From: a virus
Lineage: Duplodnaviria; Caudoviricetes
IMG/VR virus record: IMGVR_UViG_3300009184_000167
Location: 1-27,087 of that record
Length of the DNA stretch: 27,087 nt
Strand: one strand, 5' to 3'
Position numbers and translations under genes: made by a program. The notes beneath the pieces were generated by a model. It was given only the letters and a program-made list of their open reading frames with translations, had not been told where the DNA came from and did not search any database. The stretch's first letter is position 1. Each line of letters begins with the position of its first letter. Positions 1 through 22,784 of the stretch are shown one piece after another.

Positions 1-296
1 ACCTGAGCGGAAGCGAGGTGCGTCACCGTGTTGCGCGTCGTGCCCTTGCGGACACGCGTCGCCTCGAACGAAAGCTCAGGCTCGAGTGCACGCACGGATA
101 GCACCGCGTCCGCCTCGATCGAGAGCCCCTTGCACACCGTCTGCATGGCACGCTCGAGCGAGCTGTGCTTTGACGGTGGGCGGTTGACCATCTTGCCCCA
201 CCCCTGATTGTCGCAGGCTGTCTGCAACAGTGAGCGGAGATGCGGCTTGTTCTGCCCGAAGACAATCGCCGCAGAGCCAGCAATCTGAATCGTCAT
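1..296 (-). CDS. hypothetical protein, runs off the window start (MTIQIAGSAAIVFGQNKPHLRSLL...)
   Basis: Not in the ORF track. ATG at 296 preceded by GAAAGGGA; frame translated by hand is open to the window edge. Confidence 0.75.
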   Translation of the reverse strand, partial: MTIQIAGSAAIVFGQNKPHLRSLLQTACDNQGWGKMVNRPPSKHSSLERAMQTVCKGLSIEADAVLSVRALEPELSFEATRVRKGTTRNTVTHLASAQ

Positions 297-314
297 TGGA
301 TCCCTTTCGGTGTG

Positions 315-361
315 AAAAGCAGACGGGCCGCCCAGCCTTGCGACTAAAGCGGCCCGCCTGC
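315..361 (-). terminator. intrinsic terminator-like hairpin
   Basis: GCAGGCGGGCCGC/GCGGCCCGUCUGC 13-bp stem, extended by an inner stem with a GCAA tetraloop, followed by UUUUC on the - strand. Confidence 0.7.
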
Positions 362-396
362 CGGGAGGTGTACTAACGTACAGCACAGTGCTGCAC
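315..396 (-). ncRNA. candidate small RNA or leader exposing anti-SD sequence ACACCUCCCG
   Basis: Hairpin (378-396), single-stranded GUUAGUACACCUCCCG, then terminator hairpin; fills the intergenic space. Confidence 0.3.
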
Positions 397-405
397 TTGC
401 ATAGA

Positions 406-639
406 TCAGGTGTCGAGCATGATCTCCCAGAACTCTGCCTGCTCGAGCACCTTCGCCTGATGCCATGCCGCCTCGACGGCAGCGTCGGCATTGCGATACC
501 AACCGCGCGGCTTGTCGTCGCGCTCGTCGGTGAGAATGAAATAGAACCGTCGACCCACGCCGAATACCTGGCCGACAACCTTGCCCTCAAGCAAGACGTC
601 GATCACCTTCGGGCCATCATCCGTGACAGGATCAGCCAT
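406..639 (-). CDS. hypothetical protein, 77 aa (MADPVTDDGPKVIDV...)
   Basis: ORF track 406..690 trimmed to the ATG at 639, which has SD GGAGGUG. Confidence 0.8.
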   Translation of the reverse strand: MADPVTDDGPKVIDVLLEGKVVGQVFGVGRRFYFILTDERDDKPRGWYRNADAAVEAAWHQAKVLEQAEFWEIMLDT

Positions 640-698
640 CGAACACCTCCAGAATGGAGAGAAGAGATTGACGTGGGCCACACGACCCATGCGTCTGG

Positions 699-866
699 TC
701 AGATCCGCCGGCGGCGAAGGACCGTGAGAAACCTGGCACCTGCGATATACAGGGCACAGCAGGCAGTGACCTGGTCCGGGTGGGTTTGCACCATCCCAGC
801 CAGGCCGAACGCCAGCTTGAACGCCGGTTCAATGAGACCCAGCAATTCGCTGAAGTTGTAGTTCAT
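699..866 (-). CDS. small hydrophobic protein, 55 aa (MNYNFSELLGLIEPAFKLAFG...LTVLRRRRI)
   Basis: Not in the ORF track. ATG overlaps the upstream stop (TGATG); hydrophobic stretch and basic C-terminus. Confidence 0.7.
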   Translation of the reverse strand: MNYNFSELLGLIEPAFKLAFGLAGMVQTHPDQVTACCALYIAGARFLTVLRRRRI

Positions 867-1069
867 CACAGCTCCCCGAACTTCTCGGCGAGGAGCATGT
901 CAGCCACCTCGCGTCGTTCGCCGTTGGTGCAGCGAGCCAACGCACGGACAAAGGCAGACCGATCCACTGACACCGGGCCGGCGCACAGCCGGTTACGGCA
1001 CTCATCCAAACGGATGAACTGCATGGCCTCCACAGCTGGGGCCTCCGACTCATGGTTCTCGCTCGACAT
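866..1069 (-). CDS. hypothetical protein, 67 aa
   Basis: ORF track; SD GGGAGGUG before the ATG. Confidence 0.8.
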   Translation of the reverse strand: MSSENHESEAPAVEAMQFIRLDECRNRLCAGPVSVDRSAFVRALARCTNGERREVADMLLAEKFGEL

Positions 1070-1094
1070 GGGACACCTCCCTAAGCACGCCGGG

Positions 1095-1136
1095 AAAAAG
1101 AAAAGAGGGCTGACAGCCCGGCGCTGCCAGCCCTCT
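1095..1136 (-). terminator. terminator-like hairpin plus U tract directly after repeat copy 1
   Basis: 14-bp stem AGAGGGCUGGCAGC/GCUGUCAGCCCUCU followed by UUUCUUUUU. Confidence 0.7.
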
Positions 1137-1141
1137 ACAAG

Positions 1142-1168
1142 TAATCGCCGACCCCTGAAAACAAGGGG
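1142..1168 (-). promoter_or_regulatory. conserved intergenic element copy 1 (putative non-sigma70 promoter)
   Basis: + strand TAATCGCCGACCCCTGAAAACAAGGGG; one of six copies. Confidence 0.7.
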
Positions 1169-1174
1169 TTTTCG

Positions 1175-1420
1175 TCAGTCGCCGCAGGACACGTCGGCCA
1201 TGCGGTCGATTGCCTTCACAACAGCCAAGTGATCCTGCACTGCATTGAGTTGCGACAGGATCCGATGGCAGTGTGACTCTGCGTAGTCGAGCACGTTGCC
1301 AACCTCGTCGGCTGAGTAGCCGCGCTGGTGGTGGTAGATCACGTCAGCTACCAGCACTCGCAGTTGGAATGCCAACTCTGCTGATGCGAGTAGCGATGCA
1401 CCGATTGGGTCTTCGTTCAT
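1175..1420 (-). CDS. hypothetical protein, 81 aa (MNEDPIGASLL...)
   Basis: ORF track 1175..1444 trimmed to the ATG at 1420 with SD AGGAGG. Confidence 0.75.
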   Translation of the reverse strand: MNEDPIGASLLASAELAFQLRVLVADVIYHHQRGYSADEVGNVLDYAESHCHRILSQLNAVQDHLAVVKAIDRMADVSCGD

Positions 1421-1428
1421 CGTGCCTC

Positions 1429-1821
1429 CTATTGGTCGGGACAAACGGACAGCAGAGACTGAACCCGAAGCAGGTTGACCGCTTCGTCGATCAGCTCCTT
1501 TGCTCGAGTCAGGCTGTGCTGCAGGTCGCCGATGCTGTTTTGCAGCTGCTTAAACTCGAGCGCGATCTTGGCTTCCACTACGGCAAGCTCTTCTGCGTCG
1601 TGCTCTCGGCAGGGTTCGCAATTACAGTAGCCGTCAAGCTGCCGACGAAGGCGTGCGATAGCAGCTTTCTTTTTTTGGATGTGACCGAGCAGTGGGTGTG
1701 ATGCCACCAGCTTTGCCGTTGGCTCACCAAATGCGCGAGCCCCGCTCCTTGCAGCCCAAATAGTTTTGAGACACACCTCGTCAAGCACTTGCTTGGCGGG
1801 CACCTGTTTCACCGTGACCAT
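1429..1821 (-). CDS. hypothetical coiled-coil protein with CxCxxC motif
   Basis: ORF track; SD GGAAGGAGG; heptad-like C-terminal half. Confidence 0.75.
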   Translation of the reverse strand: MVTVKQVPAKQVLDEVCLKTIWAARSGARAFGEPTAKLVASHPLLGHIQKKKAAIARLRRQLDGYCNCEPCREHDAEELAVVEAKIALEFKQLQNSIGDLQHSLTRAKELIDEAVNLLRVQSLLSVCPDQ

Positions 1822-2129
1822 ACTGAGTAGCCCTCCTTCCTGAGTTGCTCGGCAAGCTGTGCCTCAGCCCGCTCGGCGTCCTGCCTTGTTGTGTACGTGC
1901 GGCCATCACTGAGGTCCGTCCTCAGTCCGCGCCCGTACTGTGTAACGTATCCCCTGTTCGCATGTACACCCTGCTTGTGCTGGGCGTACCGGTACTCGGG
2001 GTCATGGGCGGTGCTGCCTACATACAGGCAGCGGGCACCACCCTTAGGGTTGGCTCGCCGGACTCGGCCGTGATCAAGCACGGCGGGATCCAGCTCAACG
2101 ACATAGAGACTGAACACGTAACTCCCCAT
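1809..2129 (-). CDS. stand-alone GIY-YIG-like nuclease-domain protein
   Basis: SLYVVELD...CLYVGST...RYAQH...AERAE matches the GIY-YIG pattern; ATG at 2129 with SD GGGAGGUG. Confidence 0.75.
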   Translation of the reverse strand: MGSYVFSLYVVELDPAVLDHGRVRRANPKGGARCLYVGSTAHDPEYRYAQHKQGVHANRGYVTQYGRGLRTDLSDGRTYTTRQDAERAEAQLAEQLRKEGYSVWSR

Positions 2130-2143
2130 CGGAACACCTCCCG

Positions 2144-2186
2144 AAAAGAAAAGGGAGGCCGGCGCCACCATGGTCACCGGCCTCCC
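2144..2186 (-). terminator. terminator-like hairpin plus U tract directly after repeat copy 2
   Basis: GGGAGGCCGGUG/CGCCGGCCUCCC stem followed by UUUUCUUUU. Confidence 0.7.
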
Positions 2187-2191
2187 GAATT

Positions 2192-2217
2192 AACTCGCCG
2201 ACCCCTGAAATCAAGGG
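2192..2217 (-). promoter_or_regulatory. conserved intergenic element copy 2
   Basis: + strand AACTCGCCGACCCCTGAAATCAAGGG, abutting the stop codon at 2218. Confidence 0.7.
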
Positions 2218-2589
2218 TCAATCGCTGCAGAAATCCAGCACTGACTCAAGGCTCTTCGTTGCCCTGAACTCCACGAACGCAGCGTTGAGCTTGGCCAACT
2301 CCTGCTCCACTTCAGCCCACCACTCATGCCACAGCTCGCACTGCAGGCGGGCCCGAAGCAAGGCGATGTCTCGTTCGAGCTCCTGGACTGGGGTGTCTTC
2401 CTCTTTGGCAAACACCTTTGCGCCTGTGGCTACGCAACGCTTCGCGCTCTCGAGCCGGTCAGTACGCAGGTTGTGGAGGCTGTCGTGAAACGCAAGTGCA
2501 GCGTTCTGAAGCGTGTGGACCTGAGTCAACAGCTTCTCGACACGCACAAGATCCTGTGCCGTCACACGATTCCCTGTGGCTACGTTCAT
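2218..2589 (-). CDS. hypothetical alpha-helical protein, 123 aa
   Basis: ORF track; ATGA overlap with the upstream gene; SD GGAGGUG. Confidence 0.8.
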   Translation of the reverse strand: MNVATGNRVTAQDLVRVEKLLTQVHTLQNAALAFHDSLHNLRTDRLESAKRCVATGAKVFAKEEDTPVQELERDIALLRARLQCELWHEWWAEVEQELAKLNAAFVEFRATKSLESVLDFCSD

Positions 2590-2810
2590 TCAACCACCTC
2601 CTCTTCCGAGTCGGTGCCGATCTCAACGCCCAGATCGCGCATCAGTTGGACTGCGACCTCGACACGCTCGGAGATTAAGCCGAACGTCTCGTCGTCGAAG
2701 TCAGACACCATCAGCAGGTCGTGGTGCTCCTGCCTGTACCGATCAAGCGCATCCAGCACGACCTCGAGCTGGTCATTCGTCAAGGTCACAGTCGTAAGTG
2801 AGTCGCTCAC
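2586..2810 (-). CDS. acidic hypothetical protein, 74 aa
   Basis: ORF track; GTG start after AGGAGG; D/E-rich. Confidence 0.75.
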   Translation of the reverse strand: MSDSLTTVTLTNDQLEVVLDALDRYRQEHHDLLMVSDFDDETFGLISERVEVAVQLMRDLGVEIGTDSEEEVVE

Positions 2811-3027
2811 GAGTTTCCCTCCTGAGGGATTGCCCCTCTGTTGCGATCAGGATTGCAGTCCTGATCTTGGTGTAGAGACTGGTCACTGATTCCATGTGGG
2901 CGTCAGTGAACTCGCCCAATCCGTCCTTGCTAGAGACTAGCGCATCGAGCGCGTCGTCGTACGATCTCAGCTCGTCCATGAGGAATGACACTGTCACGCC
3001 TCGTGCGGCAACAGTGTGTCTTCTCAT
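2773..3027 (-). CDS. hypothetical protein, 84 aa
   Basis: ORF track; ATGA overlap; SD GGAGG. Confidence 0.7.
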   Translation of the reverse strand: MRRHTVAARGVTVSFLMDELRSYDDALDALVSSKDGLGEFTDAHMESVTSLYTKIRTAILIATEGQSLRRETRERLTYDCDLDE

Positions 3028-3410
3028 TCCTTTGGCCCCTCCTCCTTCTGCGCGGGAGCGGAAAGTGCCTGGCGATTCTGGGTCAGGAACTTGACCGACT
3101 CATCGCCCTCGTACATCCGAGCCACCTCGACAGGCATGAGGATCGGATGATCCTCGCCTTCCATGAGAACAATCTCACGGCCGGGATGGCACAGAGCGCC
3201 GACGAAGTACGTGTTGTCCGGGTCTCGTGCGGACTTGGGTCCGTCGATCACCACGTAGAACTCGTTCTCCTTGCGGCGCTTGACTGAGGCAGCAATCACG
3301 AGCGCCTTTGCCTCGCTCTTGTTGCGGACCAGAGCGTAGACACGATTCTTCTTGACCTTGCCGCACCGATACTGCATCACCAGGTAAGGGGGCCACGCTG
3401 GCATAGCCAT
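3024..3410 (-). CDS. hypothetical protein, 128 aa
   Basis: ORF track; SD GGAG; first gene after repeat copy 3. Confidence 0.8.
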   Translation of the reverse strand: MAMPAWPPYLVMQYRCGKVKKNRVYALVRNKSEAKALVIAASVKRRKENEFYVVIDGPKSARDPDNTYFVGALCHPGREIVLMEGEDHPILMPVEVARMYEGDESVKFLTQNRQALSAPAQKEEGPKE

Positions 3411-3428
3411 GTGAAACTCCGGGTTAGA

Positions 3429-3469
3429 GAAATGAAAAAGCCCCGCCGGGTAGGGTGCCCGGCAGGGCT
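3429..3469 (-). terminator. terminator-like hairpin plus U tract after repeat copy 3
   Basis: AGCCCUGCCGGG/CCCGGCGGGGCU stem followed by UUUUCAUUUC. Confidence 0.7.
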
Positions 3470-3486
3470 ATCGAACCGTCTACTAC

Positions 3487-3513
3487 TACTCGCCGACCCC
3501 TGAAATCAGGGGG
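3487..3513 (-). promoter_or_regulatory. conserved intergenic element copy 3
   Basis: + strand TACTCGCCGACCCCTGAAATCAGGGGG, containing the perfect inverted repeat CCCCTGA-AA-TCAGGGG. Confidence 0.7.
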
Positions 3514-3523
3514 TTTTCTGTGG

Positions 3524-4045
3524 CTACTTGCTCGCGTCCCGCGTCCGCTCCAGTAGCCACCGCAGCGTGGCTTGAATGCTAACGCCGTCAGCCGACAACG
3601 CTTCTCCGACTATCCACTGTATCGCCAACCGTTCATCGTCAGTAAGCGACGGCCCTCCGCACACTGGGCACTTCTCCACAGAACCAGCCGATGCAACGGA
3701 CGGCCCTGCTACTTCATGAGTCATGGTGAATCCTGTGGTGGCCGCCGTTGATCTTCCGTGTTCTGCAGCAGCCAGCTGCTCGCACAGTTTGTTGACGCTC
3801 CGCTGCAAAGCTTTGGCAGGTGCCAGAGAATTGCACAGCAAGAACAGTGCTCGGCCGCCCATTCGGGGGTCGTCTCCTCGCACCATAGTGCCGGGCTCAA
3901 CAGGCTCGGTGATCTCACGGAAGATGATTCCGTGATTGCCTTGCTTGTCCCTCGTGTACGCCAAAAGAACCTGGCCGCAACCGAGCGAGACGCGAGCAAG
4001 GCCTACGCCGTCGTCGCACGTTCCCATCTCAAAGCACTGGGTCAT
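3524..4045 (-). CDS. hypothetical protein, 173 aa, with C-terminal CPxCG and LTDDER...ATLRxLL module
   Basis: ORF track; SD GGAGGUG; overlaps the upstream stop. Confidence 0.75.
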   Translation of the reverse strand: MTQCFEMGTCDDGVGLARVSLGCGQVLLAYTRDKQGNHGIIFREITEPVEPGTMVRGDDPRMGGRALFLLCNSLAPAKALQRSVNKLCEQLAAAEHGRSTAATTGFTMTHEVAGPSVASAGSVEKCPVCGGPSLTDDERLAIQWIVGEALSADGVSIQATLRWLLERTRDASK

Positions 4046-4323
4046 TTAGCACCTCCGATCTTCTTCATCCGGACACGGGCCGCATCCAGCGTGCGGTCCT
4101 GTAACTTAGCCGCCAGCCGCTCGACCTGAGCAGACAGTGCGTCAACCTTCTGGCTCATGCCGTCTACCATCACGGACATGGCAGACTCGCGGTCGTCCAT
4201 GTCGTCCTTGAGCCAGTCGACCCGGTCTCGGGCAGACACGGCCATCTTCCAGGTCACGTACACGCTGGCTATCACAGCCAGGATGGCACAGCCTTGAGCT
4301 GCACTCAGGGTCACGAGCGTCAT
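4042..4323 (-). CDS. putative membrane-anchored coiled-coil protein, 93 aa
   Basis: N-terminal hydrophobic helix followed by heptads; SD GGGAGGA. Confidence 0.8.
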   Translation of the reverse strand: MTLVTLSAAQGCAILAVIASVYVTWKMAVSARDRVDWLKDDMDDRESAMSVMVDGMSQKVDALSAQVERLAAKLQDRTLDAARVRMKKIGGAK

Positions 4324-4365
4324 CTTTTATTCCTCCCAACAACTAGAACCTGCGGAACACGCAGG

Positions 4366-4424
4366 CCTGCAACGGCGCAGGAATGGTGGCCCAGCCGAAG
4401 CCAGGCCACCGATCGCGAGCCGTC
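4366..4424 (-). ncRNA. unassigned structured RNA motif, copy A
   Basis: GACGGC-UCGCGAUC-[GGUGGCCUGGC UUCG GCUGGGCCACC]-AUU-[CCUGC GCCGUU GCAGG]; homologous to 5750-5810. Confidence 0.6.
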
Positions 4425-4430
4425 TACCTT

Positions 4431-4456
4431 TACTCGCCGACCCCTGAAATCAGGGG
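4431..4456 (-). promoter_or_regulatory. conserved intergenic element copy 4
   Basis: + strand TACTCGCCGACCCCTGAAATCAGGGG; contains the stop codon of the upstream gene. Confidence 0.7.
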
Positions 4457-4626
4457 CGAACAGCAGGGGCCACCTTCCAGCGGCCCTTGTAGGTGTCATT
4501 CATCCATTGCCCGTACTTGGCACGGATAATGAGGGTCGCCTCCTTCTTGGTCCTGGCAGGGATGGCCTCGAACTGGAACCATCCAGGCACATACATCCAC
4601 AGGGCCCACATCTTTTTGCGTGCCAT
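4450..4626 (-). CDS. small basic/aromatic protein, 58 aa (MARKKMWALWMYVPGW...)
   Basis: ORF track trimmed to the ATG at 4626 with SD GGAGGUG; lies just 3' of the hammerhead. Confidence 0.75.
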   Translation of the reverse strand: MARKKMWALWMYVPGWFQFEAIPARTKKEATLIIRAKYGQWMNDTYKGRWKVAPAVRP

Positions 4627-4653
4627 CAAACACCTCCAAAGCACAGGGAAACT

Positions 4654-4705
4654 GCCCTCATCAGCTGCCGCCTAACGGCAGGACCCGCCGAAGCGGGTTT
4701 CGGGC
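4654..4705 (-). ncRNA. type II hammerhead ribozyme
   Basis: GCCC GAAA CCCGC UUCG GCGGG UC^ CUGCCG UUAGG CGGCAG CUGAUGA GGGC: all core nucleotides (CUGAUGA, GAAA, UH) and three perfect stems; predicted cut between 4682 and 4681. Confidence 0.93.
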
Positions 4706-5169
4706 TACTCTCCAGCCAGAACACTGGGCACGTCATTGCCCAGCTCGAGCAGCTGCTGGCACAGCGTGGCATGGCGGGAACGCAGCGAAGCCAGCTCAGC
4801 AAAGAGCCGGTCGCGTTCTCCCTCAGCCACAGCAATCTGTGCCTTCGCAGCATCCAGCACCTGCTGGTTACGCCGATCTGCCTCAATGGCCTGATCACGC
4901 TCCTGTTCCGCCACCGAGACCTGCCTCTGGCAAGCAGCCAGGACCTGCTGGTTGACGGCCTCAGTCGAAGTGATCTTCGCCATCAGCTGAGCCCGAGTCG
5001 GAGCATGCCACCAGTCAGAGACCGACTGGCCCAGCTCACCAAGAGGGCTCACCACGTACCGAGTGACGTAGTGAGACGGGCCGCCCGTAGACAGGAACAT
5101 CGACGCCATCGAACCAACGGCCACCAGGACACAGGCCGCAACAAACAGGTCACCCTTACGAAAGGACAT
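4705..5169 (-). CDS. putative membrane-anchored or exported coiled-coil protein, 154 aa
   Basis: N-terminal hydrophobic segment; internal repeat NQQVLxAxxxQxxVAExERD twice; SD GGAGGUG. Confidence 0.8.
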   Translation of the reverse strand: MSFRKGDLFVAACVLVAVGSMASMFLSTGGPSHYVTRYVVSPLGELGQSVSDWWHAPTRAQLMAKITSTEAVNQQVLAACQRQVSVAEQERDQAIEADRRNQQVLDAAKAQIAVAEGERDRLFAELASLRSRHATLCQQLLELGNDVPSVLAGE

Positions 5170-5272
5170 GGGACACCTCCACAGAACTCCCGCCCAGTCC
5201 GCCGGCTGACTGCCGACTAAAAGACTGAGCAGGAAATGCGGTTGGTGGTAGGTGCCGCTGACCTGCTACTGA

Positions 5273-5298
5273 TACTCGCCGACCCCTGAAAACAAGGG
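5273..5298 (-). promoter_or_regulatory. conserved intergenic element copy 5
   Basis: + strand TACTCGCCGACCCCTGAAAACAAGGG, abutting the stop codon at 5299. Confidence 0.7.
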
Positions 5299-5595
5299 TT
5301 ATTCGCAACAACCAGCCCTTTCTGGCTCGAGCCTAAAGACCATCGTCTTGCCGGCCCGGCGATTGCCGATCACGTCAAACCCGTCTGGCCGGATGCATCC
5401 GTAGAAGTCGCGGGTCATTCGCGGCCTGTAGTTCCAAGCGTTACGCACCTTCCACGCAATGTAGAACGTGCCGTCCCACGTGTTGATTAAGTCCTTCATG
5501 TAGATCTTGAGCTGCTTCCAGCCCTTGAGATCCATGTAGAACGAGTAACTGTCGCCACTGCTCTCGTAGACATCAACCAGTACAGTCTTGGCCAT
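5299..5595 (-). CDS. hypothetical protein, 98 aa
   Basis: ORF track; SD AAGGAGG. Confidence 0.85.
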   Translation of the reverse strand: MAKTVLVDVYESSGDSYSFYMDLKGWKQLKIYMKDLINTWDGTFYIAWKVRNAWNYRPRMTRDFYGCIRPDGFDVIGNRRAGKTMVFRLEPERAGCCE

Positions 5596-5607
5596 ATTGG
5601 CCTCCTT

Positions 5608-5718
5608 TCAGTGTGAAGCGACCCAAGCACGGAGCAGCGCCAGTACCACGTTGGCGGCGCAGTCCAAGAGCACAAGGACCAGCACAGCACGCATCGCTGC
5701 GCGTAGAAGCCAAAGCAT
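5608..5718 (-). CDS. small hydrophobic peptide, 36 aa (MLWLLRAAMRAVLVLVLLDCAANVVLALLRAWVASH)
   Basis: Not in the ORF track. SD GGAGGA 6 nt before the ATG; stop runs into the next SD. Confidence 0.7.
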   Translation of the reverse strand: MLWLLRAAMRAVLVLVLLDCAANVVLALLRAWVASH

Positions 5719-5749
5719 TTCCAATCCTCCAAGAGAAAGACCCGAACAA

Positions 5750-5810
5750 CCTGCAAAGGCGCAGGGTGGGTGGCACTTAGTCACTCCGTGCCACCGGACC
5801 GCGAGCCTTC
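5750..5810 (-). ncRNA. unassigned structured RNA motif, copy B
   Basis: GAAGGC-UCGCGGUCC-[GGUGGCAC..GUGCCACC]-CAC-[CCUGC GCCUUU GCAGG]. Confidence 0.6.
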
Positions 5811-5813
5811 AGC

Positions 5814-6149
5814 TCAAGCAGTGGCTCGCATGTAGAGCCCGTTGTCGCACCAGTCCGCAGCGAAGTCGGGAGCGCAGACTTCGTGCACCACTTCGGCCGA
5901 GTAGCCATTGGCATCAAAGCCATCCACCCGAGCCGCTAGGGCAAACGTCGGCCCAGCGGGAGAGTCAGCCACAAGGCTGTCCGCAAAGCTGCGAGCAGCG
6001 TCAATGCTCCTGAACCACTGAGAGACCTCAGGGTCTCCGAGACAGATCCTGTTGCCGTCCTGCTTGACAGCCCAGTAGGCCTCGACGCTGATGTGAGGCA
6101 GAACCCGAAAGAACCTGAGTGCGCCGATAACGCAATGCTTGACGTGCAT
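5814..6149 (-). CDS. hypothetical protein, about 111 aa
   Basis: ORF track 5814..6155; ATG at 6149 preferred, SD weak. Confidence 0.7.
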   Translation of the reverse strand: MHVKHCVIGALRFFRVLPHISVEAYWAVKQDGNRICLGDPEVSQWFRSIDAARSFADSLVADSPAGPTFALAARVDGFDANGYSAEVVHEVCAPDFAADWCDNGLYMRATA

Positions 6150-6207
6150 GACCAAATCCCATGCCAGTCAGTCCGGTGCGAAGTGCACTGGGTGCTGCTG
6201 ACACTGT

Positions 6208-6232
6208 TACTCGCCGGTGCCTGAAAACAGGG
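6208..6232 (-). promoter_or_regulatory. conserved intergenic element copy 6 (divergent)
   Basis: + strand TACTCGCCGGTGCCTGAAAACAGGG, with ACC>GTG in the core; heads the whole left arm. Confidence 0.6.
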
Positions 6233-6518
6233 TCGTTCGCAATTCGCGAACTGCGGACAGCGGGTGTTACGGAACCTATGCCGGGCGAGTGGATGGGTAG
6301 AGGTTTGGTAACAGGACCCAGATTTAATTGGCTCGGGCCACCTTCACGACCGCGTGTTCCTTGTCCGACAACGCAAGCCCGCGCTGGCAAAGGACTTACG
6401 GCGACAGATCAAAGGCCCCGAGCCCCCCCTTTCGCGCCCGCCCCTCATGTAAATGCAGCCCCTGGATTTTTTCCCGTTTTTGAAAGGCCCCGACCCATAA
6501 AACAAGCAAGGAGCCACC

Positions 6519-7067
6519 ATGCCAAAGACCAGTTCAGTCGAGTCCCGCATCCGAGACCTCCAGAGCGAGTTCAGCCCTCGCCGAAACCCGGAAGATCCCT
6601 TTGAGGAGGGTCCTTTTGCGGCCGACAATCTCCCGCCCCCAACGCCCATGCCGGAAGTCATTCGTCGGCGACGCCCAATGGACTTCGCGTACCCGCGCGG
6701 CGAAGACAAGCCAATGACGCTAGACAGGCACGCCGGAGACGGCGACCCAATGGTCCTTGACATGGACCCCAGCCAGGTGCCGCCAAGCAAGCTGCACACC
6801 CCAGCCGGCCGGGAGTCGGTTCTCGGCTTCCTGACGTCCGGCAGCTCAAGTCTGCTGCCTCGTCCGCCTGTAGCGGGTGACGAGCACAACCCGCTGGACA
6901 CTGGCTACGGGGCTGATCCGTACCTCAACGACTCCTGGAAGGACGTGCGCGGAGCCAATGCCAGCCAGGACAAGTTCATCGGCAACCAGATGCGCACCAA
7001 CTCCATGTGGAAGAACTACGGCAAACCGCAGTCTCCAGGTGGCCGCCCCGTCGGACTTGGTGGTTAG
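6519..7067 (+). CDS. hypothetical Pro-rich protein, 182 aa
   Basis: ORF track; SD AAGGAG. Confidence 0.8.
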   Translation: MPKTSSVESRIRDLQSEFSPRRNPEDPFEEGPFAADNLPPPTPMPEVIRRRRPMDFAYPRGEDKPMTLDRHAGDGDPMVLDMDPSQVPPSKLHTPAGRESVLGFLTSGSSSLLPRPPVAGDEHNPLDTGYGADPYLNDSWKDVRGANASQDKFIGNQMRTNSMWKNYGKPQSPGGRPVGLGG

Positions 7068-7635: not shown

Positions 7636-7665
7636 TTGACACCCCCAGACTGGGCGGGAGACAAT
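7636..7665 (+). promoter_or_regulatory. sigma70-like promoter
   Basis: TTGACA-N18-GACAAT, 44 nt before the ATG at 7710. Confidence 0.5.
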
Positions 7666-7709: not shown

Positions 7710-7925
7710 ATGAGTAGCGGACAAGAACAAGCCTGCTTGACATGCAGGTTTTTCGACAGGGCGACGAGCGACAGCGAGCAGGGGGAGTGCCGGCGTCACG
7801 CCCCCCTTCCGGCGGCGGTGGAAGACGCAGAGCTGCGCGTAGTTGACGCGCTCTGGCCACAAGTACTCATCGAGGAGTGGTGCGGAGAATGGGAACCAAA
7901 GACAGCGACATCGTCACGCGGCTAG
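7710..7925 (+). CDS. small Cys-rich, probably metal-binding protein
   Basis: CxxC...GECRRHAP...WP...WCGEW; SD GGGAG. Confidence 0.8.
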   Translation: MSSGQEQACLTCRFFDRATSDSEQGECRRHAPLPAAVEDAELRVVDALWPQVLIEEWCGEWEPKTATSSRG

Positions 7926-8507: not shown

Positions 8508-8540
8508 CCCTGTCGCCTGCCTGCGGGACATAAATCCTGC

Positions 8541-10273: not shown

Positions 10274-10342
10274 CGTCGCGCGCTGGCATGCACGCACGTA
10301 CACTATTTCGCAGGTCCAGCACACAAACCTGCGGAGAGTCGC

Positions 10343-11458
10343 ATGTCCGACGAAGCACTGCTCGAGTCCGACGCACCAGAATCACAGGTAACGCAAGATG
10401 TCGGCGGCGAGTCGCAAGCCAGCGAGCCCTCGACGTCGCAAGCCACTGCGCCGGCCGCGCAGGCCGAGCCGACCATCTGGACCTCCTTCCGTGCTCTGCC
10501 TGACTTCCAGGGGCAAGACGACCGTCAAATTGCTGGGAGGCTCTACGCTTCTCTCGAGCGAGAGAAAGCAGCAACAAAAGCTCTCCAGCAATACCAACAG
10601 CTCATCCCGTACGCCCAAGAGTACCTGACTCACCGACCGCAGTTCGAGGCGTTCCTTAAGAGTCAGCAGCAGCCCGCGCCACAGCCGCAGGCGCCCGCCC
10701 AGCCACAGCAGCCAGAGCAGTCCAAGTGGTGGAATCCCCCGCAGCTCCGCGACAGCTACAAGCGGTTCATCGTCAAGGACGAGCAGGGCCGCGAGACGAT
10801 CGACCAGAACGCACCGCCGTCGGCGCGCGAAGAACTGTACGAGTACATGAAGTACCGTGCGGACTTCGCCCAGAAGTTCCTCACCGACCCGCAGGCCGCC
10901 ATTGGCCCAATGGTCGAGCAGGTCGCCGCCGAGCGTGCCAAACAGATCGTTGAGCAGCAGCTCCGCGAAGTCGGCGAAGCCGGATACGTCTCCACTCTGG
11001 AGAAAGACAACTCCGACTGGCTCTATGAAAAAGACGGAACCACGCCCACGCGCGAAGGCTTGATGATTCAGAAGTACATCGAGCAGGCTGCGCAGAACGG
11101 ATACTCCACGCCGCAAGGACGTTGGCAGTACGCGTGCGACATGGTTGAGCGCGACCTGCTGCGAGAAGCGATGGACATTCAAAAGTCGCGACAGCAAGCG
11201 CCACAGTTCGCTGCGCCGCAGCAGCACGGCTTGCCAGCTCCTCAGCAACTTGCGCTTCCTGCGCCGACAGCATCTGCTGTGCCATCAGCAGCACCGCCGG
11301 CACAAAATCAAGCAGAGAAGGACATAGAATATTTGAGAAGGGAAGCGAGCAGGAACCCGAGTCGGTCACAGCCGGCAACGGACCCTCGAATTCCCAAAGG
11401 ACCAATGACCTTCGAACAACGCCTGCGCTCTCAAATGAGACGCGACGGCATCGAGTGA
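10343..11458 (+). CDS. putative capsid scaffolding protein
   Basis: Acidic disordered N-terminus, Q/A/P-rich helical protein with basic C-terminus, immediately before the MCP. Confidence 0.65.
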   Translation: MSDEALLESDAPESQVTQDVGGESQASEPSTSQATAPAAQAEPTIWTSFRALPDFQGQDDRQIAGRLYASLEREKAATKALQQYQQLIPYAQEYLTHRPQFEAFLKSQQQPAPQPQAPAQPQQPEQSKWWNPPQLRDSYKRFIVKDEQGRETIDQNAPPSAREELYEYMKYRADFAQKFLTDPQAAIGPMVEQVAAERAKQIVEQQLREVGEAGYVSTLEKDNSDWLYEKDGTTPTREGLMIQKYIEQAAQNGYSTPQGRWQYACDMVERDLLREAMDIQKSRQQAPQFAAPQQHGLPAPQQLALPAPTASAVPSAAPPAQNQAEKDIEYLRREASRNPSRSQPATDPRIPKGPMTFEQRLRSQMRRDGIE

Positions 11459-18743: not shown

Positions 18744-21700
18744 ATGCCAACTCAGGCGTTAGTGCGATTTCGTGTCCGGCAGGATTCGGCGGTCAACTGG
18801 TCGGCGTCTAATCCCGTACTGGCTGCTGGAGAGCCGGGCCTCGAGCTCGACACCGGCAAGATCAAGTACGGCGACGGCGTCCGCAACTGGGCGACCCTTC
18901 CGTACTCGTCAGGTGTTGCATTAGGCACAACAACTCCGCCTGCTGCTGGGACTGGGGCTGTCGGAATTAGCACGCTGGCTGCACGGGCAGACCACACGCA
19001 CTCACTGCCGACCGCACCAGCCTTTGAGTCCATCTCTACTACTGGCAACGCAACCGTAGGCGGGTCGCTTACCGTGACCGGCGCGTTGGTGGGCGGCTCG
19101 CACCGGCACACCACTGCCGAGATCAATGACTTCTCGGCGGCGGTGTTTGCGCAGATCAGTGCTTCCATCAAGGCTGGCTCTAACGTCACGGCGGCGATTG
19201 ATCCCGTCGCCAAAACCATCACGATCAGTAGCACGACCGCCGGAACGACGCCGCTCACGATCTCGTTTGATCCGGGAGACGCCACGTCCACTGATGGCTC
19301 GGCACTGTTCGTGTCAAAGGCTATCGGCGGATCTGGTGCCATCTCGTATCAGTGGCAGTCGTCGTCCGATAGCGGCACAACGTGGAGCGACGTGAGCGGC
19401 TCTACTGGCACGTCTCTCGCTCTCTCTGGACTGTCGGGTGCGGATGACGGTCGGAAGTACCGGCTCAAGGCTATGTCTGGCACTGAGACGGTGTACTCGC
19501 TCCCGGCCACTCTTCGCCTCCCCGCCATCGTGATTACCGCCCAGCCGCCTGACATCTCTGTTACGGTCGGTCAGTTGGTGACACTCGCCGTGTCGGCCAC
19601 CGCAGGGTCGTCCGCTATTTCGTACCAGTGGCAATCGCGACCTGACTCCACTGTGGATTGGTCGTCTATCAGCAATGCCACGCAGGCCACGTATTCCTTT
19701 GTGCCCTCATCGGCCTCGACTGGCACGCAATATCGCGCCGCCGTTTCCGCACTTGGTCTGGTTCAGTATTCACGAACAGCGACCGTCTCGGCGCGGCCGC
19801 CGTCGATTGCGTTCACGTCGCAGCCAGAAGACGCTACCAGTTCTGGTGGCGCCGCCGACTTCAGTGCGTCTGCATCCGGAGGCACAGGGGCGATTGCCTA
19901 CCGCTGGCAGAAGGCCAACGCCACAGGTGACTTCGCGGACATTGCTGACGGCACCTCTGGGGCGTCTGGGCAGGCAACGATCCTGCTATCGCTTACTGGG
20001 CTGGGGTCTTCTAATCACCTGTCCCGATACCGACTCAAGGCCACTGACTCCACCGGATTCGTCGCGTACAGTGCATTCGCAACTCTCCAGACGCTTACCC
20101 TAGTCATCACGACACAGCCAATCGACGTGTCGGCTGCGAACGGCGCCACGCTTGCAAGCTCCGCGTTCTCGGTAGCAGGAACCGCAGGCGGAACCATAAC
20201 GTATCAGTGGCAGAAGTCTACTGACGCAGGCGCAACGTGGACAAACATTTCTGGCGCCACGTCCGCGACCTACGGCTCGATCACGGTCAATTATAGTGGT
20301 GGCACCCACAACGACGGCAACCTGTTTAGGTGTGGCCTTTCGTACAGCGGCCAGACCCTCTACAGCAACGCCGCCGCTTTGTCAGTTGCCCCTGCTGCAC
20401 TCACGATCTCTGCACACCCGTCCGACGCCACTTCCAATAACGGCAGTGCGGCATTCTCGCTGACCTACAGCGGTGGACCTTCCGGCGCCGCGACGGTTTA
20501 CTGGCAGTGGCGCCCGGCGGGTTCTGGGGCCGACGGATGGCTGACTATCGCGGGCTCGACCACCACAAGCAGCACTACCACTAGGTCTTATTCGTTTTCT
20601 GGACTCCAGGCGTTCTTGGGCCTGTCGGCAACTGGATACGATGGCGCGCGAGTGAGGGGCGTCGTGACAAAGGGCGCCGCTTCGGTATTCACAAACGCCG
20701 CCACGCTCACGGTTCCGGGAGTCGGACTAAGCGGCTCGCTTCCTGCGGACGCTACTGCAACGACGGGATCTGCCTCCTTCACAACTGTGTACTCGTTGAC
20801 GTCCTGCTCGTCTTCGGCTTCCATCCAGTGGCAATATAAGGCACCAGCGGACTCTTCGTGGACGAACATTTCCGGTGCCACGAGCGCCACCTACAGCATC
20901 GCATCTGGGCTTACATCGGCCTACAACAACTACAAGTATCGCGCTGTTGTGTCGGCGTGCAACGTCACGGCGTACACGCGAGAGGCCACGCTGACGGTCG
21001 TGCCGCCGCCTCTCGTCATCACAACCCAGCCGCTCGACGTTTCCACCTCCACGACAACCGCGACGCTTACGTTTGCGTACAGTGGCGGCGACGGCAGCAC
21101 CGCCTCCATCACGTGGGAAAGGCAGGTTGCTGGACTTTCTGGATCCACGTGGACAACGGTGAGCGGCGCCACGCAGACGTCTCTGGTAATCTCCAGCCTG
21201 ACATCGCAACTCAGCGGTTCACAATATCGCGCCACCGTCACGGTTGGCACGCAAACAGTGACCACGCGATCCGCAGTGCTTACGGTTGGCGGTGCGACCA
21301 TCACGCTCAACCCATCCGATGCACGGGCCGTGAATGGTTCGGCGTCCTTCTCGTTTGACTTCTCCAGCACGGGGTGCTCTAGCCCGTCCATTTCATGGGA
21401 GAGGCGGCCACCGTCAAATACTGCTTGGGGGCCAGTAGCGGGAGCGACCGGCAAACTTCTATCTCTCGTGGGGCTGACCTCTGCAAGCAGCGGGTGGCTG
21501 TATCGGGCATCCGTCACGTGCAGTGACGTAACGCTGTATACGAGCGAGGCCACGCTCACCGTGCCGTCGTATGACTTCTTCACTTCTCAGCCCGCAAGCC
21601 AGAGCGTGCAGGCCGATGCCACCGTGACGCTTTCATATCAGGGGGTGTTTTCCGCGTCAGCGTATCCCGCCCGATGGCAGATGCGACGAGTCGGCAGTAC

Positions 21701-22784
21701 GAACTGGTCGTACTACACGGAGGCCGGAAAATCCCAGCAGTCCATTTCCTTTACAGCCGTCGCCGCACAGCACCACAACACAGAGTGGCGAGTCGAAGTC
21801 TCGTTTCCCAACGACACGCTGTACAGCAACATTGCTTTGCTGACCGTGAACAAGGCAACCTCGATCAAGGTGGTCAACTCTCTGTCCGGTACCGCTGACC
21901 TTATTGGCGTTGCCTACGCACGAGGCGCATACATCGCGCTCCCGTCAGACCAAACGAACGTGGCTCGACGGTCTACGGATGGCGGCAACACTTGGTCGAT
22001 CAGTTGGCTTCCGGCTGCTAGGTACTGGGACGGGATCGTCGCAACCTCACAGGGAGTGCTGATTGCCTACAGCAGCGGCGACAGCGGAACGTACTGGCCC
22101 ACCATCACATACAAAAACTCGACAGCAACCTACTCGTGGCGTGTAGATCAACCAGAGTCGCCTGCGCTCGTGGCTCGCAGTTTTGACGGTGGCTTGACGT
22201 GGGACACCGCCGTGCCGCCCTTTTTCATGGGGTCGATGGTTCGCATGTGGTCGTTCCCATGGAACAACGTGCTTATTGCCACGTACCGAGACATTTCCTC
22301 CACCTCCATCCCCGCCGCAACTCAGGGGACGGTGCAAAGTGCGCAGTACGGTGAGTTTGTGGGCAAAAGATTTGGCCGACACTACATCGCGTACAACTAC
22401 AACAATGGCTCTGGCGACTCGTGGGCGCGGTACGAACTGCCTGCATCTGCACGGCAAACGCTTGTTTCTGTAGAAGATACAGCTTGCCCAGCCATCACCA
22501 GCATGGCTATGAGTCCTTCCGGGCTGCTAGTCTGCACGTCCCGCTATCAAGGCTTCACGTACAAGGCTGCGCAAGACGGTAGCGGTCTTGGATCTCCTGG
22601 CAGCGTCACTGGCGTATATGACCGCAAGGGGTATCTGCTTTATCGCGACCTGTCCGCAGGTCTTGGTGCGCTTCAAATAGCAGACACGACCGCAACTGGC
22701 GTTTCGAGCGGCGCATCGCTCCGCACTGTTACGCGGAGCACCGGAGGCGGCATCGTCCCATACCCATGGCGTCCAAGAGTTTAA
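18744..22784 (+). CDS. fibre/adhesin: Mtd-N/hyaluronidase-N-like anchor, nine Ig-like repeats, Asp-box (BNR) region
   Basis: N-terminal NW..SNPVLAAGEPGLELDTGKIKYGDG..W..LPY; repeats xITxQPxD..YQWQ..W..ISGAT..YR; STDGGNTW and SFDGGLTW. Confidence 0.85.
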   Translation: MPTQALVRFRVRQDSAVNWSASNPVLAAGEPGLELDTGKIKYGDGVRNWATLPYSSGVALGTTTPPAAGTGAVGISTLAARADHTHSLPTAPAFESISTTGNATVGGSLTVTGALVGGSHRHTTAEINDFSAAVFAQISASIKAGSNVTAAIDPVAKTITISSTTAGTTPLTISFDPGDATSTDGSALFVSKAIGGSGAISYQWQSSSDSGTTWSDVSGSTGTSLALSGLSGADDGRKYRLKAMSGTETVYSLPATLRLPAIVITAQPPDISVTVGQLVTLAVSATAGSSAISYQWQSRPDSTVDWSSISNATQATYSFVPSSASTGTQYRAAVSALGLVQYSRTATVSARPPSIAFTSQPEDATSSGGAADFSASASGGTGAIAYRWQKANATGDFADIADGTSGASGQATILLSLTGLGSSNHLSRYRLKATDSTGFVAYSAFATLQTLTLVITTQPIDVSAANGATLASSAFSVAGTAGGTITYQWQKSTDAGATWTNISGATSATYGSITVNYSGGTHNDGNLFRCGLSYSGQTLYSNAAALSVAPAALTISAHPSDATSNNGSAAFSLTYSGGPSGAATVYWQWRPAGSGADGWLTIAGSTTTSSTTTRSYSFSGLQAFLGLSATGYDGARVRGVVTKGAASVFTNAATLTVPGVGLSGSLPADATATTGSASFTTVYSLTSCSSSASIQWQYKAPADSSWTNISGATSATYSIASGLTSAYNNYKYRAVVSACNVTAYTREATLTVVPPPLVITTQPLDVSTSTTTATLTFAYSGGDGSTASITWERQVAGLSGSTWTTVSGATQTSLVISSLTSQLSGSQYRATVTVGTQTVTTRSAVLTVGGATITLNPSDARAVNGSASFSFDFSSTGCSSPSISWERRPPSNTAWGPVAGATGKLLSLVGLTSASSGWLYRASVTCSDVTLYTSEATLTVPSYDFFTSQPASQSVQADATVTLSYQGVFSASAYPARWQMRRVGSTNWSYYTEAGKSQQSISFTAVAAQHHNTEWRVEVSFPNDTLYSNIALLTVNKATSIKVVNSLSGTADLIGVAYARGAYIALPSDQTNVARRSTDGGNTWSISWLPAARYWDGIVATSQGVLIAYSSGDSGTYWPTITYKNSTATYSWRVDQPESPALVARSFDGGLTWDTAVPPFFMGSMVRMWSFPWNNVLIATYRDISSTSIPAATQGTVQSAQYGEFVGKRFGRHYIAYNYNNGSGDSWARYELPASARQTLVSVEDTACPAITSMAMSPSGLLVCTSRYQGFTYKAAQDGSGLGSPGSVTGVYDRKGYLLYRDLSAGLGALQIADTTATGVSSGASLRTVTRSTGGGIVPYPWRPRV

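Follow-up and report, generated by a model that had tools for sequence, protein, structure and literature searches.

Why should the gaps between the genes of a phage be filled, one after another, with elements that look structured as RNA? The question is raised by the left arm of a 27,087-nt stretch of tailed-phage DNA (IMG/VR record IMGVR_UViG_3300009184_000167; hereafter the window), a linear virus record of 27 kb that is ~44% complete. The arm is a minus-strand block of 18 small genes, called by open reading frame plus ribosome site, and lies next to plus-strand genes for a single-stranded DNA-binding protein (SSB), major capsid protein, terminase and portal, which run from position 6519. 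Ten arm gaps (84, 95, 129, 78, 126, 113, 88, 105, 59 and 109 nt) contain an element each, and the remaining eight junctions measure -38 to +12 nt. A first-pass annotation of the window had claimed a structured element in every sizeable gap, and with all ten gaps of at least 59 nt filled and the others at or below 12 nt this holds; the repeat, the hammerhead and both copies of an unassigned motif (4366-4424 and 5750-5810) were also found where it had put them, and the ~1-kb units that it saw as set by a dedicated promoter-like repeat reappear as repeat spacings of 842-1295 nt.

We propose, with a probability of roughly 0.6, that the arm is organized into short gene units by promoter repeats, 5' hairpins, cutting by a hammerhead ribozyme and shielding by a pseudoknot, here called motif X. 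The six repeat copies would act as promoters, and the predicted transcripts would mostly open with a hairpin; every device would then give the gene downstream the same type of mRNA, in which a paired 5' end is followed by a spacer rich in pyrimidines and by a strong ribosome site. In what follows we proceed from the positions, conservation, covariation and spacing of the elements, which were observed, to what these suggest about transcription, cleavage, shielding, the reader of the repeat and timing.

Scans detected 36 relatives by their capsid gene, including five complete genomes of 60-63 kb, while a search with the major capsid protein in annotated phages and GTDB genomes returned no cultured relative or prophage. 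The check on relatives proposed with the first-pass annotation found that the element types are kept as gene content and order vary from arm to arm. Outside the near-identical contig L131, 8 of the 16 complete window genes have homologues, a count from simple gene calling and BLAST that may miss some. On the minus strand, 8 of the 10 gap elements fold with z <= -2.5, as compared with a mean z of -0.6 in coding controls (5 of 60 at <= -2). The hammerhead (z -1.8) and the element at 6163-6232 (z -0.6) do not reach this threshold, and are supported by motif and conservation instead.

Repeats and leader hairpins

The repeat, here repeat R, occurs six times on the minus strand of the window, at 6210-6233, 5275-5298, 4433-4456 (overlapping a stop codon), 3489-3512, 2194-2217 and 1144-1167, with predicted transcription starts (+1) at 6202, 5267, 4425, 3481, 2186 and 1136, respectively; counted from the last-named copy, the spacings are 1050, 1295, 944, 842 and 935 nt. 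In the complete relative G001 all six repeats likewise lie within the arm, and 33 of 34 profile matches are on the arm strand. Two conserved boxes flank a variable middle, and a pyrimidine-purine step stands 7 or 8 nt downstream in 30 of 30 copies. In a sister clade (G002, G003, G006, G007) the same slot is occupied by a different repeat, CCGCTGCGGAGTC, with the step at one single offset in 49 of 50 copies. Repeat R is thus likely to be a promoter. It is, to judge from its boxes, not a housekeeping promoter: canonical TTGAC-17-TAnnnT promoters are used elsewhere in these phages, and the repeat is unlike them. A single repeat-like match on the late strand was noted in G004 at 3731 (plus strand), just ahead of the late motif described below.

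The repeat could also be an RNA element, and its sense strand can indeed fold as a 6-bp hairpin. The palindrome, however, pairs in 15-25 of 25 distinct copies depending on the position, with zero two-sided changes, and because of this patchy pairing we regard the repeat as a DNA box and not an RNA stem.

Behind the repeats, a strong hairpin starts within 2 nt of the predicted +1 in 55 of 80 copies, versus 195 of 600 random positions. The window leaders illustrate this arrangement. Leader Y (6163-6202), the first 5' hairpin of the arm, has an internal loop and keeps its position in relatives of both clades, with covariation of its inner stem judged by eye and uncounted. The hairpins at 2144-2186 and 1095-1136 begin at the predicted +1 and are followed by U-rich tracts, and a hairpin with a U-rich tract also precedes the ribosome site at 3429-3469. 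A further hairpin with a pyrimidine tract (645-695) has no repeat ahead of it, and its place at the same junction of G001 is taken by a different hairpin (all on the minus strand). Some repeat copies abut a ribosome site with no hairpin between, for example at G004 15430, G002 6253 and G003 4938.

These leaders had first been described as terminator-like, which is apt for three of the six repeat-led window leaders; most leaders lie past the predicted start and lack a U-tract. The 8 nt behind a strong hairpin hold four U or fewer in 49 of 70 cases, and pyrimidine tracts also stand behind the hammerhead and motif X. In every gap a ribosome site directly follows the element, so that efficient termination would silence the gene. 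The leader hairpins are therefore likely better read, as predicted folds, as 5' caps with pyrimidine-rich spacers than as terminators, and such caps accord with the requirement of RppH for unpaired 5' nucleotides (described in PMC3997798). Two points weigh against this: five or more U follow 21 of the 70 strong hairpins, including the three window leaders just mentioned, two of which also pass a separate terminator scan, and leaders of this kind would look like working terminators right behind a promoter. The U-rich leaders may partly attenuate.

Carried further, this would make the leaders attenuators, in which hairpin and U-tract stop transcription unless a phage factor binds the repeat RNA in a nut- or put-like manner. 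The three leaders that resemble strong terminators would fit, as would the foldable sense strand of the repeat and a run behind the repeat in some relatives that we take to be boxA-like. We nevertheless judge attenuation quite improbable, since the repeat palindrome varies in pairing without compensation, the boxA-like run is not present in the window, repeats occur without a hairpin behind them, most hairpins have no U-tract, and no sigma-70-like promoter was found ahead of the first repeat on the arm strand. Independently of their role, the leader hairpin loops of G001-G007 fall into recurring classes present in both clades, for example CACGUUG and CAUGGUG, which are possible protein sites.

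Hammerhead and pseudoknot at the gene boundaries

The element at 4654-4705 on the minus strand overlaps the stop codon of gene 4705-5169 and has the layout of a type II hammerhead, with a predicted cut between 4682 and 4681. Its core is intact (CUGANGA, GAAA, NUH and three stems, stem II being open), and nine distinct homologous copies keep the core with paired changes in all three stems. A U at 1.7 and an A just ahead of stem II are present in all nine, and a contact of this kind is described in PMC11875169. On these covarying homologues we regard it as a genuine type II member. Against this stands its Rfam score (RF02276), which at 30.2 bits does not reach the gathering value of 37, with E of 0.018 on the window and 0.0013 on 2 kb.

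Arms carry one or two hammerheads, and the ribozyme probably splits a message at the junction of two genes. Cleavage at 4682/4681 would give the upstream product a hairpin at its end and the downstream product one at its start. Hammerheads flanking phage genes are known, cutting in vitro has been demonstrated, and those of prophages were proposed to process long transcripts into short mRNAs (all as described in PMC3088659). A difficulty for the protective side of our proposal is that RNase J is described as degrading 5'-OH RNA after glmS cleavage (PMC3997798); by analogy, cutting could destabilize the message through RNase J attack on the 5'-OH.

Motif X stands at comparable boundaries. One window copy (5750-5810) follows the stop codon of gene 5814-6155 at a distance of 3 nt; the other (4366-4424) starts at the predicted +2 behind repeat copy 3 and is followed by an extra hairpin (4349-4365), as it is in L014 and L018 (all window features on the minus strand). 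The motif (60-75 nt) opens with a 6-nt strand, which a 4-nt linker joins to a long, variable hairpin with a nearly invariant closing G-C pair. A 4-bp hairpin follows, and the 6 nt of its loop pair with the opening strand to form a pseudoknot. In an alignment of 21 copies, 97.8% of cells pair and four pairs have two-sided changes; sliding the pairing reduces this to 29-52%, and 0 of 500 shuffles reach the covariation score. As a control on the descriptor, it matched once in 1.36 Mb, versus 5 times in 0.45 Mb. From the model matches 38 copies were kept (27 of 63 and 11 of 51) as distinct, intergenic and possessing the middle hairpin; they come from 26 contigs, some near-identical, and pair at 6/6 (25 copies) or 5/6 (13 copies). 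The matches set aside were weak, repeated a copy already kept, or agreed with the search patterns by chance.

It is important to note what weighs against these figures. Since the descriptor used to select the 21 aligned copies requires pairing, the covariation is partly circular, and the pattern that supplied 11 more copies sets four pairs in advance. No more than five copies came from searches that did not require the pseudoknot, these pairing at 5 or 6 of 6 positions. Motif X had no match in Rfam. On relatives, Rfam yielded nothing at gathering score at seven loci, and at twelve loci no more than a weak hammerhead and one chance miRNA match. We thus take motif X, from its alignment, to be an uncatalogued RNA fold. 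It occurs in at least two phage groups, including phages that have sigma-70 early promoters and no repeat. In GTDB genomes four pattern matches were obtained, none of them intergenic with a long middle hairpin, and these were judged to be chance.

What the fold does is suggested by where it lies. Of 27 copies scored for position, 14 overlap an in-frame stop codon, 7 more are within 5 nt of one, 5 follow a promoter repeat, and 1 was left unassigned. Among the promoter-led copies, the motif begins exactly at the predicted +1 in four, and at +2 in the window. This register, together with the paucity of invariant unpaired bases, favors a shield that would protect the start of the downstream gene's message, a function to which we give about even odds on the modeled fold. 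The exoribonuclease-resistant RNAs (xrRNAs) of eukaryotic RNA viruses are likewise compact pseudoknots with paired 5'-most bases at gene boundaries, and the placement of motif X at +1 fits exoribonuclease stalling of this type. Motif X has no sequence or Rfam match, has another helix order and occurs in a bacterial setting. In favor of shielding, the last hairpin of the motif is degenerate in G001 and L007, which have a promoter behind it. Against shielding, L021 carries an intact motif X ahead of a promoter, and a 5' shield there would appear superfluous.

On a second reading, motif X would be a small self-cleaving ribozyme of a new class, doing the work of the hammerhead. This reading is kept open by gene family F3, which is followed by the hammerhead in the window and by motif X in G001 and G004 (the family being joined by weak BLAST links, window to G004 at 39% over 79 aa). 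The frequent overlap or adjacency to stop codons, as with hammerheads, also points this way, and motif X opens with a G-U or G-C pair, as HDV-like (hepatitis delta virus-like) ribozymes do after cleavage. Such an activity is unlikely, however: unpaired invariant bases are few, the first base is the predicted +1 in four copies and leaves nothing to cut off, cleavage immediately ahead of the first helix would break up the stop codon upstream, Rfam offers no match, and the helix order corresponds to no ribozyme class known to us. HDV-like, twister and pistol ribozymes were considered and set aside, the helix order or core not agreeing with any of them; most copies have other loops in place of a twister-like one. 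It is tempting to speculate that a new ribozyme, interchangeable with hammerheads and promoter-hairpin modules, serves several phage groups and provides each accessory gene with a capped mRNA, and this too we think unlikely. No copy of motif X was found directly ahead of a hammerhead. According to PMC6765202, ribozymes near phage genes are to be expected, and the question of what self-cleaving ribozymes do for phages has not been settled.

A third reading, in which motif X promotes read-through or frameshifting at the upstream stop codon, draws on the TGA or TAA triplet that overlaps the first helix in 25 of 38 copies. It is scarcely credible, given that no frame is preferred, that just 5 of 23 scored copies have an open frame shared with the downstream start, and that the five copies at promoters involve no stop at all. 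Most of the remaining probability falls to motif X as a 3'-end protector or a protein site.

Two observations on the loops may be added. The long hairpin is capped at 5777-5787 and in six homologues by the 11-nt loop G(G/A)(A/G)GURACUAA; this loop resembles a UAA/GAN motif, and is confined to about seven copies, with other loops elsewhere. In the sister clade, X-like leaders (G002 50613 and 51527; G003 35493 and 34627; G006 59609 and 59051; G007 658) have a last loop, ACUC or ACUUC, that complements GAGU of the promoter repeat, a pairing that could form solely in read-through RNA.

The reader of the repeat

If repeat R is a promoter and not one for the housekeeping polymerase, something else should read it. 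An obvious candidate is a sigma-70-family protein encoded by all five complete relatives and by 7 of 10 records, at 27706-28353 in G001, where the gene ends the plus-strand block (orthologues L071-L074 and L090-L092). It converges with the gene for a small serine resolvase, which stands at the distal end of the arm.

A further non-housekeeping motif, GGACATA(A/G)A, is found 35 times on the late strand and 3 times on the other in nine genomes (9 expected per strand) and is identical across all clades. In the window it lies at 8526, 11320 and 15728 on the plus strand with a weak GGC box ~20 nt upstream, much as a late promoter would. In phiEco32 and 7-11, middle and late promoters are described as read by the phage sigma (PMC8948821). 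Given this precedent and the invariance of the motif across clades, we think it somewhat more probable, by analogy, that the phage sigma reads the late motif rather than repeat R. The window itself is without the sigma gene, a point against our proposal as a whole. Repeat R would then need another specificity factor or a host alternative sigma. No second sigma-like gene was recognized among 30 G001 proteins in PHROGs or 42 in Pfam.

The converse, that repeat R is read by the phage's own sigma and that the arm is a block of middle rather than early genes, is doubtful. The wide presence of the sigma gene favors it, as does the fact that the repeat differs between clades whose sigmas share 37-50% identity, versus 64-70% within a clade. 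But two clades provide one contrast only, and the constancy and strand bias of the late motif, with the phiEco32 and 7-11 precedent, argue the other way. A virion RNA polymerase (N4- or crAss-like) was considered as a third reader and rejected: the proteins of >500 aa contain no conserved polymerase motif and have no solved relatives, with the proviso that motif scans can miss diverged enzymes. One of 1210 aa resembles unnamed or LPD38 clusters.

That these are early or host-takeover genes, as was suggested at first, is unproven: no arm protein reaches a curated Pfam cut-off, three have PHROG matches, all weak, and the repeat is unlike the sigma-70 promoters found elsewhere in these phages. 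The terminal repeats of the genomes (99 or 127 nt) are probably assembly overlaps, and so do not place the arm at a physical genome end.

Predicted switches, precedents and neighboring features

An anti-Shine-Dalgarno (anti-SD) RNA had been proposed, and two elements, at 315-396 and 5186-5298, are candidates for it. For both a trans-acting role is the weaker reading. The second corresponds to leader Z (5170-5267, minus strand), a long irregular hairpin found in four distinct phages. In the predicted fold, an anti-SD strand (5245-5256) lies opposite the ribosome site of gene 4705-5169 (5176-5180) and base-pairs with it. The homologues all have their own ribosome site predicted as paired (4 of 4), with a variable upper stem, and the genes behind them encode products with a hydrophobic N-terminus. 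The fold predicts a cis switch that hides its own ribosome site, and the leader would keep a membrane-protein gene silent until the hairpin is opened or cut; it could be an RNase III site.

The other candidate includes a long hairpin and four U (315-362, minus strand), and the ribosome site for the gene that starts at 296 comes directly after them. As a trans-acting small RNA it would block arm ribosome sites with an 8-mer (364-371) that is complementary to five of them (5180, 4637, 2141, 1080 and 650), is unpaired in the predicted fold and is retained in the window, G001 and G004. This is rather improbable, in part because any anti-SD pairs with any SD, and also because 315-396 has neither a repeat nor a sigma-70 site upstream and its 5' hairpin is not present in G001. 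Moreover, the 8-mer overlaps a palindrome, TGTAC-N4-GTACA (369-382), that 6 of the 9 scanned genomes keep at the orthologous position; the seed is lost at 3 of these 6 sites. The palindrome also overlaps a -10-like hexamer (367-372), and its 4-nt center varies freely. In G003 and G006, where the 8-mer is lost, it covers the -10 box of a canonical sigma-70 promoter. On these grounds, conservation with a variable center and coverage of the -10 box, an operator is probably the better reading.

A half-site, GTACAGCAC, lies beside the palindrome at 378-386 and recurs in the spacers of sigma-70-like promoters in the replication blocks of G002, G003, G006 and G007. A palindrome with one mismatch (10289-10302) precedes the gene at 10343, and another the G001 sigma gene. 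These sites are possibly operators of a repressor.

How novel is the arrangement? The first-pass annotation knew of no such system, which is fair for the layout and less so for the parts. Short mRNAs are made through repeated promoters and intergenic RNA structures in the T7 early region, with its RNase III hairpins, and in the SPO1 host-takeover module. Those rely on a host nuclease, whereas the arm appears to use a ribozyme and an uncatalogued pseudoknot. A close precedent for the repeats is the promoter/stem-loop (PeSL) cassettes of T4-type phages, which, as described (Arbiol 2010, PMC2839356; Comeau 2014, PMC4122927), similarly place a repeated promoter, stem-loop and ribosome site between small variable genes of unknown function and allow neighboring genes to be exchanged and reordered. 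The arm shares the repeated motif and the ribosome site between ORFans, and lacks the sigma-70 boxes and the upstream terminator. In PeSLs the stem-loop lies upstream of a sigma-70-like promoter and terminates, whereas the arm hairpin begins at the predicted start, the arm promoter is not sigma-70-like, and ribozymes and pseudoknots occupy the same slots. Gene order and content also differ between arms; by analogy with PeSLs, the repeats may serve as recombination linkers.

The prophage type II hammerheads (Perreault 2011), in the account of PMC3088659, are of the same class and permutation and also lie between phage genes. In the arm they are mixed with promoters and motif X, and the loop I-tail pseudoknot common in that family does not occur consistently here, as judged by eye. 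The podoviruses phiEco32 and 7-11, in turn, are described (PMC8948821) as having, like the phages here, a cluster of small variable genes facing the late ones, a sigma of their own, and sigma-70 promoters for other genes. Their early cluster is driven from its start by a few sigma-70 promoters, where the arm has a third promoter class throughout. Neither motif X nor the layout of the arm was found described in the literature covered, which was partial and did not extend to supplements with candidate-RNA catalogues.

The occurrence of promoter hairpins, hammerheads and a pseudoknot in the same slots makes the idea of a shared protected 5' end directly testable. Motif X, if it acts, would be either a bacterial exonuclease block or a new ribozyme class, each of them new if true. 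It is 60-75 nt long, covaries, is present in two phage groups or more, and can be assayed at little cost. Three promoter classes and a phage sigma likewise offer an in vitro route to the transcription program of an uncultured phage family.

Several features outside these subjects were noted. At the point where the arm and the late genes diverge, 6458-6474 (minus strand), a conserved GGAAAAAATCCAGG is followed by G-runs; this element is present in 7 of 9 genomes and is possibly a packaging or origin site. The distal arm of G001, beyond the window (30577-34588, minus strand), encodes DUF6744, DUF4314, an AAA ATPase and a VWA/metallopeptidase. On the plus strand of the window, a canonical sigma-70-like promoter (7636-7665) precedes the gene at 7710, and 18744-22784 encodes a structural protein of 1346 aa with internal repeats.

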